Shown: one piece after another, positions 7,082 through 13,200 of the stretch
Layout: every line of letters starts with the position of its first letter
How positions within the stretch are numbered: the stretch's first letter is position 1
Origin: a bacterium
GTDB lineage: Bacteria > Zhuqueibacterota > QNDG01 > DSAB01
Length of the DNA stretch: 64,000 nt
Assembly (NCBI GenBank): GCA_016931965.1
Contig: JAFGDT010000110.1
Coordinates: 40,377 to 104,376, forward strand
Direction of reading: 5' to 3'
Notes under the pieces: generated by a model
What the model saw: only the letters and a program-made list of their open reading frames with translations
What the model was told of the DNA's origin: nothing
Database searches by the model: none
Made by a program: the position numbers and the translations under genes

Positions 7082-7185
7082 TCACACACTCCCCTCCACA
7101 ATCTTAATCTCCTCCTCCGTCAAGCCTTACAGCTCGTACACAAGTCGGTCAATCTGCGTGTCTGTAGCATCGATCTGGCGCTGGA
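7082..7185 (-). pseudogene. orphan 3'-terminal stub (copy 4) of a Type IIG RM gene
   Basis: A 104-bp stretch is homologous to 10276-10380, the last ~35 codons of the 974-aa RM gene (QRQIDATDTQIDRLVYEL...). The Tyr codon has become TAA at 7127-7129. No upstream gene body is present. Confidence 0.8.
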
Positions 7186-7205
7186 ACTGCTCGAGATTGC
7201 CTGCT

Positions 7206-7733
7206 CTATTTCCACTCATCGGGTCTTCTCAATATAAAACCATCTAACTTCTTCAATCTATCTGGGAAAACGGAATTTGCGATTCTCTTCTCAGGGAATA
7301 ATTTTTTCACCTTCTTTATCGGTGCAGAAAGATCACTGTCTGCTGAAATTAATATCGCTCTATCGAACCGATCCTTAAAAGCATCGGTTAACATTTCAAC
7401 GGCAATATTCACATCCGTCATTTTCTCGTTTGGTTTTGGTATGATGTTGCCACATTTGTAACATTCGATATCATTTGGAAGATAGTGGCCATAATAAATC
7501 TTGAATTTTTTCAAGGTTTCCAGTGCTTCAATAAACGTCGTCTGTCTTTTTACTTTATCCGGTGGAAAAGATACTCGTGAAGTAAAATATTTTGTCATAA
7601 TTAACTTTTGATCTTCTTTTAGAAGAGCCTTCGCCAGTTTCTGTAAGTTCAACCAATAATAACGCTTCCACTTTTTCTCCTTCAATCCAAAATACAGATT
7701 AAAACCATCGATGTATACGATCACTTTTTCCAT
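7206..7733 (-). CDS. NYN-domain (LabA-like) predicted RNase with a Cys-x2-Cys insert
   Basis: MEKVIVYIDGFNLYFG and DVNIAVEMLTDA...ILISADSDLSAP are the NYN (PF01936) hallmarks. I trimmed the start to ATG 7733; the ORF caller used TTG 7751. Confidence 0.8.
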   Translation of the reverse strand: MEKVIVYIDGFNLYFGLKEKKWKRYYWLNLQKLAKALLKEDQKLIMTKYFTSRVSFPPDKVKRQTTFIEALETLKKFKIYYGHYLPNDIECYKCGNIIPKPNEKMTDVNIAVEMLTDAFKDRFDRAILISADSDLSAPIKKVKKLFPEKRIANSVFPDRLKKLDGFILRRPDEWK

Positions 7734-7744
7734 GATAATTTTTC

Positions 7745-7773
7745 TTGACAAACGTAAACAAAGGTGTTATATT
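7745..7773 (+). promoter_or_regulatory. consensus sigma70 promoter TTGACA-17-TATATT, divergent from the NYN gene
   Basis: The -35 and -10 hexamers are exact with a 17-nt spacer, and no plus-strand ORF follows. Confidence 0.5.
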
Positions 7774-7780
7774 TTATCCA

Positions 7781-9919: not shown

Positions 9920-9988
9920 AATGTTATCCTTTTAATTATTAAGCTTCATAAATTATCTAATGATAAATCTATACTGGCAAAATCTTAA

Positions 9989-10092
9989 TCACACACTCCC
10001 CTCCACAATCTCAATCTCCTCCTCCGTCAACCCGTACAGCTCGTACACAAGCCGGTCAATCTGCACGTCTGTGGCATCGATCTGGCGCTGGA
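9989..10092 (-). pseudogene. orphan 3'-terminal stub (copy 1) of a Type IIG RM gene
   Basis: It reads ...QRQIDATDVQIDRLVYELYGLTEEEIEIVEGSV* with an intact frame and stop, but an in-frame TAA lies immediately upstream and no gene body is present. Confidence 0.8.
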
Positions 10093-10144
10093 GTGTTTAG
10101 TGTGTACGTGCTAAACATGATGAATGTTTATTGTTCATTTACAT

Positions 10145-10275
10145 CCCCCTTTTAAGGGGGACAAATAATTCTCTCCCTTTGAAGGGAGATCCTTGGATAG
10201 GTTTCCTGTCCAAGGTAGAGGGATGTCATCTCCCCACGAGGGGAGACCCTTGGCGATAGCCAAGGAAGAGGGGTG
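10145..10275. repeat. BIME-like mosaic hairpin element, copy c (modules E-A-B-C-D), abutting the RM gene stop
   Basis: CCCCCTTTTAAGGGGG, TCTCCCTTTGAAGGGAGA, CCTTGGATAGGTTTCCTGTCCAAGG, TCTCCCCACGAGGGGAGA and CCTTGGCGATAGCCAAGG are followed by AAGAGGGGTGT. Confidence 0.8.
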
Positions 10276-13200
10276 TCACACACTCCCCTCCACAATCTTA
10301 ATCTCCTCCTCCGTCAAACCGTACAACTCATAGACCAGCTTGTCAATTTGCGCGTCTGTGGTGTCGATCTGGCGTTGCAAAGTCTCACGTGTATGCGGCT
10401 CATGCATGTCAGATAGTTTTTCATTTAGATTGAGAATTTGTTCAACTTGTGTATTTATCTTGTTATATACTCTATTTTCTAATGCATTTTTAAAATCAAC
10501 TTTTTTAATAGGTAATTTCTCAAGATGTCCCGATTTTACTATTGGAAACATATTCCTAAAATCTGTAAATACTGTTTTAAAGTAAAAACTTAATAATTTT
10601 GAATTCAAGATACCTAAAACATATTTTGTAGAAAGACCAATGTTATTTTTTAAATAAATAACAACTCCTGTATTAATTACATAATATTTTTCATTATCAA
10701 AACAAAATGCTAAGCTCTTACCAACAAATTTACTAACTATTTTTTCATCAACTTCAAAAATCTCCTTTCTTCTCGGTCTATCGAGTTTGTCGGGTAAATA
10801 ATTTACATAAAGTTCTTCTTTAATTAAAAAATATCGTTTAATTTGAGCACCTTGGATAATAGGTTTGTAATCCCTATTTATTCTTTTATTACATAGAAAT
10901 TTTTTATCATTGCCTGTTGTTAAACCACGCCAAACTTCACAGATTTCACCCAATGTTTTACTATTCTCGCTGCATTTTATTATTATCTCTAATATGTCAT
11001 CAGTAATGTTTATTAAAAAACGATTAAATAAATGTGGATCCAGAAATACACTTTGATTTACTTTGTAGATATTATCTTCGTATTTAATCGTAATTTTATT
11101 ATTTTGTTTTGCATCTTCTTTTAAATAAATACAAATCAATGCCTCTACACCTGCATCTTCAAATACAGTACCTTCATTTAATAGGTGTGTTATGTTTGTA
11201 TTCTTAATAAGGAAATTACGTAACTCTTTCATTCCATCATTTGTTAATAATGTATTAGGAATAATCATCCCAAAAAGAGCTTTTTCTCTCATTATTTTAA
11301 ATGATTTTTCTAAGAACAAATTAAAAAGGTTTATTTGCATTGTTGCATATTTATATCTGTTTTTATAATAACTTATAATAAAAGGATGTTCTTCGAAGCT
11401 CGTATATCGCCCACCTTTAACAACAACATATGGCGGATTGCCGATCACGGCGTCGAATCCGCCTTTGGCGAAAATTTCGGGGAATTCGCGTTCCCAGTCG
11501 AAGGCGTTGATGCGAAGGGCTTCTGCCTCGTCGAAGAGGGCGGACTGCTGGTTTTCGTAAAAGTCGGGGCCGATGAGGGAGTTGCCGCATTTGATGTTGT
11601 TAGACAGGTTCGGCAGTGCCCGCTCGTGCCAGATCTTCATCTGGCTGTGAAGCGTCTCGCTGTTTTCATTTTCCAACACTTTAAGGAGCAGGCTCAGCTT
11701 GGTCACTTCCACGGCATTGGCGTCGATATCGACACCATAAATGTGGTTCAGAAGAATGCGCTTCTTTTCCGCAGTGGACAGGAACCACTGTCCGCCCATT
11801 CCCTGGAAGATCGCCTGCGGATCGGACTTGCGGGGCCGCTGACCTCTGGTGGTCGGCGATTTGGGCAATATGCCTGTTTTTTCGTATTCCTTTCGATAGG
11901 CATCCAGGTACCAGTCCAGCAGGTATTGATACGCGCCAAGCAGAAACGATCCCGAGCCGCACGCCGGATCGCAAATCCGCAGTTCGCCGACATCTTTGGG
12001 CGTTTTGCCTTCAACGAGTTTACCCACCGTATTTTTAACGATGTAATCCACGATGTACTGGGGAGTGTAATAGACGCCCCCGGCCTTGCGCACTTCCGGC
12101 TTTTCCTCGATTCTCGCATGATGCCCTTGGGTGAGCGTGATCCGCTTGCCGAGAAACTGTTCGTACGCATTGCCCAGCACCTCCACTGGCAGAACGCTGA
12201 ACTCGTAGGGACAGTCCGGATAATAGAGATGACGGAGTATGTCTTTCATTACCCGGTCATCCACTTTCAGAGAGGGTGTGATTACATCGGGATCGGGGCC
12301 GTCCTTTTCCTCAAAATGGAACAGGCCGGAATTGTAGCGCTCGTCCGCTCTGTAGTAAATTTCCACGAGGCGCGGATAGACATGCTCACCGTTGAGCAGC
12401 GCTCGCAGTGTGTACTGGGATTCGATGCCGCGGTCCTCGCTCATACGCAGGAAAATCAGCCGGTCGATGGTCAACTGCACCGCAAAGTTGAGTTCACGCT
12501 CAGAGAGTCCCGGATTCCTTAAAGCGATGTTGCGGGCCAGCTCGATGCGCCAGTTATCCAGATCATTCAGGAAATCGCGGTCGATCTCAGCGCGTGGTTT
12601 TTTACCCTGCTTATCCTGAATGAAGCGGTCAAAGTCGCCGCGCATCACCGATTCTTTGGAAAAGACAGATTGAATTTCATCCCATTTTTCAAGATATTCT
12701 TCAAAAGTATAGTAGAGCATGCGGCCTACATGCGACTTATCAGATAACGCAGGTTTGATGCGTGTATCATAGACGATGAATTCCTCGAAATCCGTCAGCA
12801 GCGAGGCGGGCAACCGGGCGCTGTAGGCATAACGGCGCAACTGAAAAGCCGGAGCCGGATTGTGCTTGAGATCCACAGCCGGTTTTTTTGTTTCCATGAA
12901 AAAAATGCGTTTCCCGCCGATTCGGAAAGAATAATCGGGCGCCTTGGTCGTACCACTCACCTTCACTTCATCTTCGTGAATCACATCGCGGTAGGCCATG
13001 GCATGTCCCGACTTGTTCAGCACATCCCAGCCGAGGGCTTCCCAGAATGGATTGACGAATTCCACACGGATGTTTGTCTCGTTGTATTGCGGGCTACGGT
13101 ATTCTTTCAGATTCCTGTGGAATTTTTCAACGAGTTCTTTGATTGTTTTTGGAGTTTTTGTCATGGTCTGGTTCTTTTGATATATTGGATCTTTTGACAT
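10276..13200 (-). CDS. Type IIG restriction-modification enzyme: a single polypeptide with a PD-(D/E)xK nuclease domain, an N6-adenine methyltransferase domain and a target-recognition domain
   Basis: The 974-aa protein has an N-terminal MmeI-like nuclease motif (DYSF...FFMETKKP), SAM motif I (CDPACGSGSFLL), motif IV (VIGNPPYVV), and the C-terminal helix QIDKLVYELYGLTEEEIKIVEGSV typical of Eco57I/MmeI-type enzymes. The AT-rich TRD spans about 10400-11350. Confidence 0.85.
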   Translation of the reverse strand: MSKDPIYQKNQTMTKTPKTIKELVEKFHRNLKEYRSPQYNETNIRVEFVNPFWEALGWDVLNKSGHAMAYRDVIHEDEVKVSGTTKAPDYSFRIGGKRIFFMETKKPAVDLKHNPAPAFQLRRYAYSARLPASLLTDFEEFIVYDTRIKPALSDKSHVGRMLYYTFEEYLEKWDEIQSVFSKESVMRGDFDRFIQDKQGKKPRAEIDRDFLNDLDNWRIELARNIALRNPGLSERELNFAVQLTIDRLIFLRMSEDRGIESQYTLRALLNGEHVYPRLVEIYYRADERYNSGLFHFEEKDGPDPDVITPSLKVDDRVMKDILRHLYYPDCPYEFSVLPVEVLGNAYEQFLGKRITLTQGHHARIEEKPEVRKAGGVYYTPQYIVDYIVKNTVGKLVEGKTPKDVGELRICDPACGSGSFLLGAYQYLLDWYLDAYRKEYEKTGILPKSPTTRGQRPRKSDPQAIFQGMGGQWFLSTAEKKRILLNHIYGVDIDANAVEVTKLSLLLKVLENENSETLHSQMKIWHERALPNLSNNIKCGNSLIGPDFYENQQSALFDEAEALRINAFDWEREFPEIFAKGGFDAVIGNPPYVVVKGGRYTSFEEHPFIISYYKNRYKYATMQINLFNLFLEKSFKIMREKALFGMIIPNTLLTNDGMKELRNFLIKNTNITHLLNEGTVFEDAGVEALICIYLKEDAKQNNKITIKYEDNIYKVNQSVFLDPHLFNRFLINITDDILEIIIKCSENSKTLGEICEVWRGLTTGNDKKFLCNKRINRDYKPIIQGAQIKRYFLIKEELYVNYLPDKLDRPRRKEIFEVDEKIVSKFVGKSLAFCFDNEKYYVINTGVVIYLKNNIGLSTKYVLGILNSKLLSFYFKTVFTDFRNMFPIVKSGHLEKLPIKKVDFKNALENRVYNKINTQVEQILNLNEKLSDMHEPHTRETLQRQIDTTDAQIDKLVYELYGLTEEEIKIVEGSV

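Follow-up and report, generated by a model that had tools for sequence, protein, structure and literature searches.

The stretch of DNA considered here (hereafter the window: 64,000 nucleotides of contig JAFGDT010000110.1, from a bacterium of the Zhuqueibacterota) holds a Type IIG restriction-modification (RM) gene, behind which, in region 7082-10380, lies an array of three gene cassettes separated by displaced and degenerate copies of the gene's own 3' end. The intact 3' end is referred to as resident, any copy of the tail as R, and the four displaced copies as stubs; coordinates follow the numbering of the window (Table 1). Reading downstream along the minus strand, the order is resident tail, hairpins, stub 1, a DUF3800 gene (DUF3800a) with a candidate small RNA, stub 2, a second DUF3800 gene (DUF3800b) with a 102-nt RNA, stub 3, a candidate small RNA with an NYN gene, stub 4, further hairpins and a DUF559 gene. 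Copies of R (70-120 bp, the last ~35 codons) thus separate the modules from one another and also close off the series at either end. Cassette units measure ~0.8-1.1 kb and hold one protein gene each; the genes between the stubs are mutually unrelated and are not themselves repeats. An earlier note on this DNA had described the stubs, but their role as cassette boundaries is absent from it. We regard the locus as one case of a recurrent arrangement, probably built by recombination, in which defence-candidate cassettes in series have the conserved tail of a restriction specificity gene as their anchor.

Table 1. Features of the RM gene and of the array behind it, in window coordinates, listed from the RM gene downstream.
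Feature	Position	Strand	Description
Type IIG RM gene	10276..13200	-	974 aa; Pfam HSDR_N, Eco57I/MmeI-type N6-adenine methylase, TaqI_C specificity domain
AT-rich specificity (target recognition domain, TRD) segment	10381..11425	-	22-25% GC vs 51-56% in the rest of the RM gene
Resident tail (R)	10276-10380	-	last 34 codons and stop of the RM gene; sole intact family member
REP-like (repetitive extragenic palindrome-like) hairpin cluster	10140..10275		between resident tail and stub 1
Stub 1	9989-10093	-	complete 105-nt tail copy; in-frame TAA precedes
DUF3800a (cassette 1)	9164..9919	-	251 aa; Pfam PF12686, 2.7e-12
Candidate small RNA a	9094..9190	+	convergent with DUF3800a; intrinsic terminator 9159-9182; fold z-score -3.6
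Stub 2	8883-~8950	-	5'-truncated, decayed tail copy
DUF3800b (cassette 2)	8140..8865	-	241 aa; PADLOC PDC-M04A, 2.3e-48; Pfam DUF3800
Structured RNA b	8046..8147	+	102 nt; convergent with DUF3800b, abuts the gene's 3' end
Stub 3	7856-7957	-	tail copy with one extra codon (…KVVEKSLQ*)
Candidate small RNA c	7779..7848	+	divergent from NYN; near-consensus promoter TTGACA-17-TATATT, 7745-7773; terminator 7814-7838
NYN (cassette 3)	7206..7733	-	175 aa; PADLOC HEC-09, 3.8e-71
Stub 4	7082-7186, homology extending to 7193	-	mosaic tail copy; Tyr codon now TAA
DUF559 endonuclease-like gene	6593..7069	-	Pfam DUF559, 3.7e-34; last unit, behind stub 4

Repeat finding over 6300-10500 returned one family, an 87-nt segment present five times in the same orientation (at 7094, 7871, 8895, 10001 and 10288). 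The copy at 10288 lies inside the 3' end of the 974-aa open reading frame (ORF) 13200-10276 on the minus strand, and all five, read in the coding orientation, translate as the tail of the RM ORF. With asterisks denoting stop codons, the resident reads …LQRQIDTTDAQIDKLVYELYGLTEEEIKIVEGSV*, stub 1 LQRQIDATDVQIDRLVYELYGLTEEEIEIVEGSV* with an in-frame TAA upstream, stub 2 …IIRLMYELYGLTE*EIKIIKESV* with two in-frame stops, stub 3 NRQINSIDAQIDRLVYELYGLTEEEIKVVEKSLQ*, and stub 4 FQRQIDATDTQIDRLVYEL*GLTEEEIKIVEGSV*, its internal stop having arisen through TAC -> TAA. All are direct repeats and none includes a specificity domain. A scan of the whole window found the motif nowhere else, which excludes a chance origin of the copies.

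Over the last 105 nt of each copy, stubs 1 and 4 are closer to one another (97/105, 92.4%) than either is to the resident (90/105, 85.7%, for stub 1; 89/105, 84.8%, for stub 4), as the earlier note had held. Its description of stub 3 as differing in its C-terminal ending (…KSLQ*) and of stub 2 as highly diverged likewise agrees with our matrix, in which these stubs reach 72-74% and 54-61% identity to the remaining copies, respectively (58% between stub 2 and the resident). The stop codons that it had taken as signs of decay in stubs 1 and 4 are both present, and every stub carries stop codons or is truncated. The common end-point that it had assigned to stubs 1 and 4 holds approximately but not exactly. 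The stub start corresponds to 10377, where DNA similarity among RM alleles resumes after the variable specificity domain, while homology of stub 4 to other RM alleles begins ~8 nt further 5' (GAGCAGTTCCAGCGCC); a possible extension of stub 1 further 5' into pre-tail sequence, whether by ~20 nt or by ~50 nt, was not significant (z = 2). Similarity of stub 2 to two related loci begins at 8947 (L090) and 8945 (L081).

HSDR_N, N6_Mtase/Eco57I/MmeI_Mtase and TaqI_C domains occur in the single 974-aa ORF, as is characteristic of Type IIG enzymes, and the protein matches the PADLOC REase_MTase_IIG model (4e-201) and is 100% identical to RQV92061.1. Its relatives number in the thousands, and ~100 of the 120 best share the same ~35-residue C-terminal tail. 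Base composition varies sharply along the gene: the nuclease/methylase part has 51-56% GC and the tail ~50%, as against 22-25% in the specificity domain (about 10400-11400). In a comparison with four related RM genes, similarity of the DNA ends at 11426-11471 and resumes at 10377; on the 3' side of the variable specificity domain, R alone remains similar in DNA between alleles. A related TRD occurs in another locus (L119; 77% identical over 369 nt), whose RM gene is split into two ORFs. The specificity domain thus seems to be a replacement inserted between two conserved blocks, the methylase part and the tail, and the resident gene is itself a chimera with its right-hand junction at R. Since similarity stops and resumes at these points, the tail would be the right-hand conserved arm of a specificity-domain swap, that is, a stretch already in use as a recombination arm. 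Exchange of specificity domains by recombination at conserved blocks on their flanks is familiar from Type I and Type IIG enzymes, and also from phase-variable hsdS shufflons, which employ inverted repeats, silent half-genes bearing specificity domains and, usually, a dedicated recombinase. The resident gene resembles these systems in being a specificity-domain chimera; the stubs differ from phase-variable shufflons in being direct repeats with neither a specificity domain nor a recombinase.

Differences among the tail copies are informative as to their origin. Resident and stub 1 differ by 9.5 synonymous and 5.5 non-synonymous changes (ratio of non-synonymous to synonymous divergence, pN/pS, 0.16), resident and stub 4 give pN/pS 0.12 (Fisher p = 5e-5 for the resident-stub synonymous excess), and stub 3 gives 0.19-0.29 against other copies. 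Neutral decay of a local copy would give pN/pS near 1. As the resident-stub differences are mostly synonymous, the copies diverged as working gene ends, and the stubs are different tail alleles rather than decayed local duplicates. An origin by tandem duplication of the resident 3' end on the spot, followed by decay through point mutation, is already contradicted, and we consider it highly improbable. It would accommodate the stop codons and truncations found in all stubs, and a tandem [tail + spacer] arrangement with a 462-nt unit, 96% identical, does exist behind a related RM gene (L136). It does not, however, accommodate the predominance of synonymous differences, the extra codon that stub 3 has in common with a tail copy in L090, the match of stub 2 to a live tail allele in L081, or the fact that the units between stubs are unrelated genes. 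Nor are the stubs equidistant from the resident, to which stubs 1-4 are 86, 58, 72-74 and 85% identical. The earlier proposal that several donor alleles contributed, rather than local duplication, is therefore upheld, with further support from the mosaic structure of stub 4 and from the linkage of alleles to cassettes in other genomes.

Between the resident and stubs 1 and 4, differences are confined to the first 63 nt, bar one AAG -> GAG change in stub 1, which is also the single difference within a 42-nt 3' block common to the three copies. Resident and stub 4 differ at 16 of the first 63 nt but at only 2 of the following 90 (the remaining 42 nt of R and 48 nt of hairpin sequence past its end; Fisher p = 1.3e-5). 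The 5' 63 nt of stub 4 resemble stub 1, while its 3' 42 nt and the hairpins beyond are near-identical to the resident and its surroundings; on these grounds stub 4 is a clear recombination mosaic. Where stubs 1 and 4 are concerned, it may be the resident's own 5' 63 nt that are foreign; these adjoin a specificity domain of 22-25% GC within a gene otherwise of 51-56% GC.

Comparison with other genomes shows particular tail alleles to be linked to particular cassettes. The nearest relative of stub 2 is the live RM tail of L081 (…KIVEESV*), and a DUF3800b gene 91% identical to that of the window starts 18 nt past this tail; the …ESV* ending of the stub 2 type is thus a live RM end directly upstream of the same cassette. 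The …SLQ* ending lies upstream of NYN both in the window (stub 3) and in L090, a contig from an unrelated metagenome (ENA ERZ24794679) with five cassettes and four stubs, in the order RM gene, AAA_13 ATPase, stub, DUF3800, stub (…KIVEESLQ*), NYN, stub, orf135, stub, orf239 and housekeeping genes. A two-cassette block of ~1.7 kb is collinear between the two (window 8947-7282; 81.4% over 1676 nt), running from stub 2 through most of NYN and resuming (7290-7190) past an 84-nt deletion in the window, whereas identity between the RM genes is only 72.8% in their conserved parts. The junction between the NYN stop codon and the stub is the same in the window and L090, and is recognisable in L092, whose NYN gene is only 72% identical at the DNA level. 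Both cassette junctions are therefore conserved between genomes, the one in L081 and the other in L090 and L092.

A further comparison is offered by six loci chosen by their RM protein alone, with cassettes disregarded (L119, L120, L121, L122/L123, L125 and L136), four of which have stubs behind the RM gene. In L120 one unknown gene is followed by a 78-nt stub; in L121 a 47-nt stub precedes DUF2971; in L122/L123 the order is DUF559, a 77-nt stub and Mrr; and in L136 a tandem 462-nt [tail + spacer] unit is followed by DarT/Macro genes and a partial stub. Neither L119 nor L125 has a stub behind the RM gene. Stubs occur also in L030, L024, L006 and L092. Locus L136 belongs to a KSB1 genome, and its duplication of RM tail and spacer has a perfect 462-nt period; beyond it come a split DarT gene with a Macro gene (DarTG-like), the partial tail copy and a Y1-type transposase gene, the whole lying in 11750-12706 and 12843-16055. 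Another Y1 transposase gene adjoins the RM gene in L121. In L122 and L123, which encode the same RM protein, a hairpin array differs in copy number by ~390 nt (12020-12215 in L122, 4880-5460 in L123). An assembly artefact is an unlikely source of the layout, because it recurs in independent assemblies, including ones in which the same locus was recovered from different samples (L122 and L123; L091-L098).

We also examined 80 loci of the DUF3800b family, from many phyla, for direct repeats upstream and downstream of the gene. Eight had a direct-repeat match, and in six of these the two copies lie immediately beside the cassette; in L030 (168 nt), L024 (32 nt), L006 (27 nt), L022 (150 nt) and L026, what is repeated there is the 3' end of the upstream gene. 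In four of the 80, the DUF3800b-family gene lies 0-36 nt behind an RM tail of the present kind. The repeat in L026 (Nitrospira) is the tail of an hsdS gene, 96% identical over 103 nt, after which the copies part into divergent but homologous ends (…AVLARAFRGEL* and …AILSRAFRGGF*). The layout of R, cassette and R is thus found to recur behind related RM genes and, in one locus, at the 3' end of hsdS. In L002 (Scalindua), a DUF3800-RNA cassette lies between 159-nt non-coding direct repeats (5751-5909 and 6892-7050; 97.5% identical); other members of this repeat family are found close by. A tblastn search of plasmids with the tail consensus gave seven weak and uninformative haloarchaeal matches.

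The association of DUF3800b with a structured RNA invites the question of whether the cassette might move itself, the DUF3800 protein and its RNA forming an RNA-guided element that makes long target duplications. The AlphaFold model of DUF3800b (pLDDT 94) finds RNase HII/HIII as its best PDB matches (Foldseek E = 7e-6), with TM about 0.5 and rmsd about 10 Å, and we take the N-terminal D-E-S motif to sit at the position of the RNase HII DEAG motif. RNA b has four helices, a terminator end and 27 base pairs, 13 of which show compensatory changes; a covariance model places it abutting DUF3800 in about 55 loci (L001-L054, L081, L085, L090), always convergent with genes of this clade. The constancy of this pairing, the RNase H-like fold, the direct repeats in eight of the 80 loci and the non-coding repeat of L002 would all suit such an element. 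The unpaired segments of RNA b (GAAAACCC, GGGAAACC, GGUAGU and ACGUAGG) are, on the other hand, invariant across phyla whatever the insertion context, so that they cannot provide target guides, and RNA-guided insertion by DUF3800 and its RNA was rejected on that account. Long duplication of the target by staggered cuts was likewise rejected, as the flanking copies are diverged alleles and mosaics rather than identical duplications. Some 72 of the 80 loci, moreover, have no flanking repeat, and NYN, DUF559, AAA_13 and DarTG cassettes leave the same footprint with no DUF3800 gene. Self-mobility of this kind accordingly strikes us as very remote.

A more serious alternative invokes a site-specific recombinase encoded elsewhere in the genome, for which the RM tail serves as attachment site and the cassettes are non-autonomous integrative elements carrying a replacement gene end, in the manner of 3'-end genomic islands or of integron cassettes. 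Insertion by an integrase classically leaves direct repeats made from the 3' end of the target gene, the 42-nt block found with one difference in three window copies could be read as a core site, and Y1-type transposase genes adjoin the arrays in L121 and L136. Genomic islands at the 3' ends of tRNA and protein genes indeed present an intact end, an insert and a displaced partial end in direct orientation, as does the window array; they bring their own integrase and use a fixed core site, while the window units are about 0.8-1.1 kb long, encode no recombinase and have variable boundaries, the repeats ranging from 27 to 170 nt across loci. Across loci, stub lengths amount to 27, 29, 32, 47, 77, 78, 103, 105, 150 and 168-170 nt, and both 5'-only and 3'-only remnants of the tail occur, which disfavours a fixed cut site. 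Stubs 2 and 3 lack the 42-nt block. R is a purine-rich coding sequence in which we saw no attC-type palindrome by eye, and the only inverted repeat within 6300-10500 sits inside DUF3800b, in no stub. The same footprint is also formed by an hsdS tail in one locus and by a non-coding repeat in another. Among ORFs of at least 250 aa within ~20 kb on either side of the window array, none has a recombinase or transposase domain, and no integrase or transposase gene was found in L090, L120 or L122. We therefore judge this alternative unlikely.

Variable ends, mosaics, the linkage of alleles to cassettes, conserved junctions and the lack of recombinase genes favour instead general homologous recombination within R, and we give a probability of about 60% to the array having been built in this way, judging from its end products. 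R would serve both as the right-hand arm for specificity-domain swaps and as the site at which cassettes are joined. By one route, a cassette bounded by R would be excised as a circle with a single R and enter a related RM locus by a single crossover; by another, the cassette would arrive on linear DNA, through pairing of the distal stub on that fragment with the tail of the recipient. A displaced, mosaic copy of the tail, decaying later, would be left in each case, and both routes would predict the composition of stub 4, with its donor-like 5' part and the 3' part and downstream context of the recipient. In at least one further event, a cassette-free relative would have supplied a new specificity domain together with tail and hairpins, displacing the former gene end, now stub 1; the succession of resident tail, hairpins and stub 1 would then be best interpreted as a later replacement, akin to the displaced orphan fragments of Rhs systems. 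The first duplication in each lineage probably came about by an illegitimate join. The tandem duplication of R and spacer in L136 is as expected from unequal crossing-over between R copies.

Alternatively, the stubs may be inert scars left by a handful of single insertions, illegitimate or homology-facilitated illegitimate, since inherited vertically or moved only in large fragments and playing no continuing part in mobility. The stubs do meet unrelated cassette sequence at their 5' ends, which vary from locus to locus, stub 2 is cut short within R, and most DUF3800 cassettes elsewhere have no flanking repeat. Such scars would nevertheless have to recur in many lineages and in two families of specificity genes, and to preserve the NYN-to-stub junction across NYN genes as divergent as those described above. 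Mosaic copies, furthermore, point to later crossovers inside R, and the cassette block is closer between genomes than are the RM genes. On balance we find this explanation improbable.

Several considerations weigh against assembly by recombination at R. Apart from the ~72 DUF3800 loci without flanking repeats, 20 RM genes from phage or viral contigs with the same tail motif have no stubs; the layout is frequent in one RM subfamily but not universal, and our view of its prevalence draws on about a dozen loci. The route of recombination has been deduced from its end products, with no circle, empty site or recA dependence observed. The first duplication of R needs an illegitimate join, for which the model does not account, and the unit of resident tail, hairpins and stub 1, which contains no gene, does not fit it neatly. 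Y1-type transposase genes lie near two of the arrays, and a recombinase may be encoded elsewhere in the genome. Lastly, the similarity between the window and L090 could reflect one old event followed by transfer of the block, which would reduce the number of independent cases.

With regard to their contents, the NYN and DUF3800b cassettes belong, by their hidden Markov models, to HEC-09 and PDC-M04A, respectively, and are thus candidate defence families, PDC families being predictions; DUF3800a had no PADLOC match. Close homologues of NYN are almost all 202-204 aa long. The shorter window copy has an internal, in-frame deletion of 84 nt (28 codons), mapping between 8452 and 8528 of L090, and it may be inactive as a result. 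Truncation of its 3' end by stub 4 was considered and rejected, as the 3' end and stop codon are conserved with L090. Small RNA c (~70 nt; fold z-score -5.4) is conserved in L090 (7886-7964) and recognisable in L126 (about 4880-4990), where its first hairpin keeps the loop GAUAGCAUC despite stem changes that, by eye, read as compensatory; a divergent RNA beside an NYN-family gene is also found in a BREX-like island without RM tail stubs. Small RNA a has a strong terminator and is unrelated in sequence to RNA b, and its promoter is a weak match, by eye only (TTGCAT-17-TATATT, 9060-9088). Weinberg et al. (2017, PMC5737381) described structured, terminator-ended RNAs that are encoded beside DUF3800 genes in one orientation or the other, and RNA b fits that description. 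It matches no Rfam 15 family, however, and searches of 6300-10500 at E up to 10, and of the window at gathering thresholds, found no Rfam DUF3800 motif; none of the three RNAs matched any Rfam family at E up to 10.

Apart from those between the resident tail and stub 1 (10144-10265), hairpins of the REP-like kind occur in the window only at 6489-6582, 7009-7071 and 13279-13371, so that they bracket the RM gene and the DUF559 gene (the latter by 7009-7071 and 6489-6582); they give weak, sub-threshold matches to whalefall-1 in Rfam. Beyond the array lie housekeeping genes, encoding MutS, a radical SAM enzyme, ValRS and RecG. A 235-aa ORF with no Pfam match (5745-6452) is the only other minus-strand gene adjoining the island, and over the window's first 52 kb every other ORF of at least 250 aa runs on the plus strand. 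Some 5 kb from the island lies a tRNA gene (799-882, plus strand; Rfam tRNA, 52 bits), whose variable arm is long and which shows no sign of use as an integration site.

Among known systems, the array can be compared with the orphan toxin/immunity modules downstream of rhs and cdiA, which undergo homologous recombination with the main gene, as documented by Koskiniemi et al. (2014, PMC3967940). In both cases displaced fragments follow an intact gene in series and retain homology to it. Rhs orphans, however, carry a swappable, alternative C-terminal toxin domain and a cognate immunity gene, while the window stubs hold only the invariant last ~35 codons, and the genes that follow (DUF3800, NYN, DUF559) are independent ORFs. 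Chromosomal integrons, which are reported to store anti-phage genes (bioRxiv 10.1101/2024.07.02.601686), likewise have a platform gene, then co-oriented and mostly single-gene cassettes with a recurring separator of ~100 bp. They differ in that the window has no IntI integrase among the ORFs searched around the array, that its separator is a coding repeat with variable boundaries and no attC-type palindrome apparent by eye, and that its cassettes have their own promoter-like sites and RNA genes. Of Rhs/CdiA orphan arrays, integrons and 3'-end islands, the array thus agrees with none in every defining feature.

Small candidate defence genes 'embedded' in RM, BREX, DISARM and Hma systems have been catalogued by Payne et al. 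(2024, bioRxiv 10.1101/2024.01.29.577857). As far as the accessible text of that study goes, the window NYN (HEC-09) and DUF3800b (PDC-M04A) fall in families of the catalogue, small candidate genes there, too, nest beside methylase or specificity genes, and HEC-09 gave no protection against the phages tested. The same text proposes no insertion mechanism: 'recombination' does not appear in it, and 'duplicat' and 'repeat' appear once each in unrelated senses (deduplication, and the abbreviation of tetratricopeptide repeat). The genes it describes stand between the genes of multi-gene systems, whereas the window host is a single-gene Type IIG system and its cassettes are appended serially, each bounded by a displaced copy of the tail. 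Our searches for literature on the tail motif, the cassettes, direct repeats and RM hotspots returned nothing relevant, and we found no earlier description of tail-bounded cassette arrays in the searchable literature, the coverage of which leaves out many subscription papers.

Defence genes are known to cluster and nest in RM, BREX and related systems, and the route by which they arrive is largely unexplained. The window locus and about ten others offer a readable footprint of such arrivals, in the form of cassettes bounded by allelic and mosaic copies of an RM tail. As the copies come from different versions of the RM gene, these loci suggest that bacteria stack defence genes through ordinary recombination at a conserved gene tail. 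A broader proposition, which we advance tentatively and at somewhat less than even odds, is that the tails of restriction specificity genes (those of Type IIG enzymes and, as in L026, of HsdS) act as a recombinase-independent, integron-like platform, at which tail-bounded anti-phage modules are captured, stacked, shuffled and exchanged between distant bacteria by homologous recombination. If the footprint does reflect recombination at the tail, this would be a simple route to building and exchanging defence islands without dedicated mobility genes, and would link turnover of RM specificity domains to turnover of the neighbouring defence genes. It would also furnish a practical search rule for new defence candidates, namely to examine the intervals that separate an RM gene from the displaced copies of its 3' end. 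A portable homology handle of this kind would, finally, explain why defence genes are found 'embedded' in RM systems.

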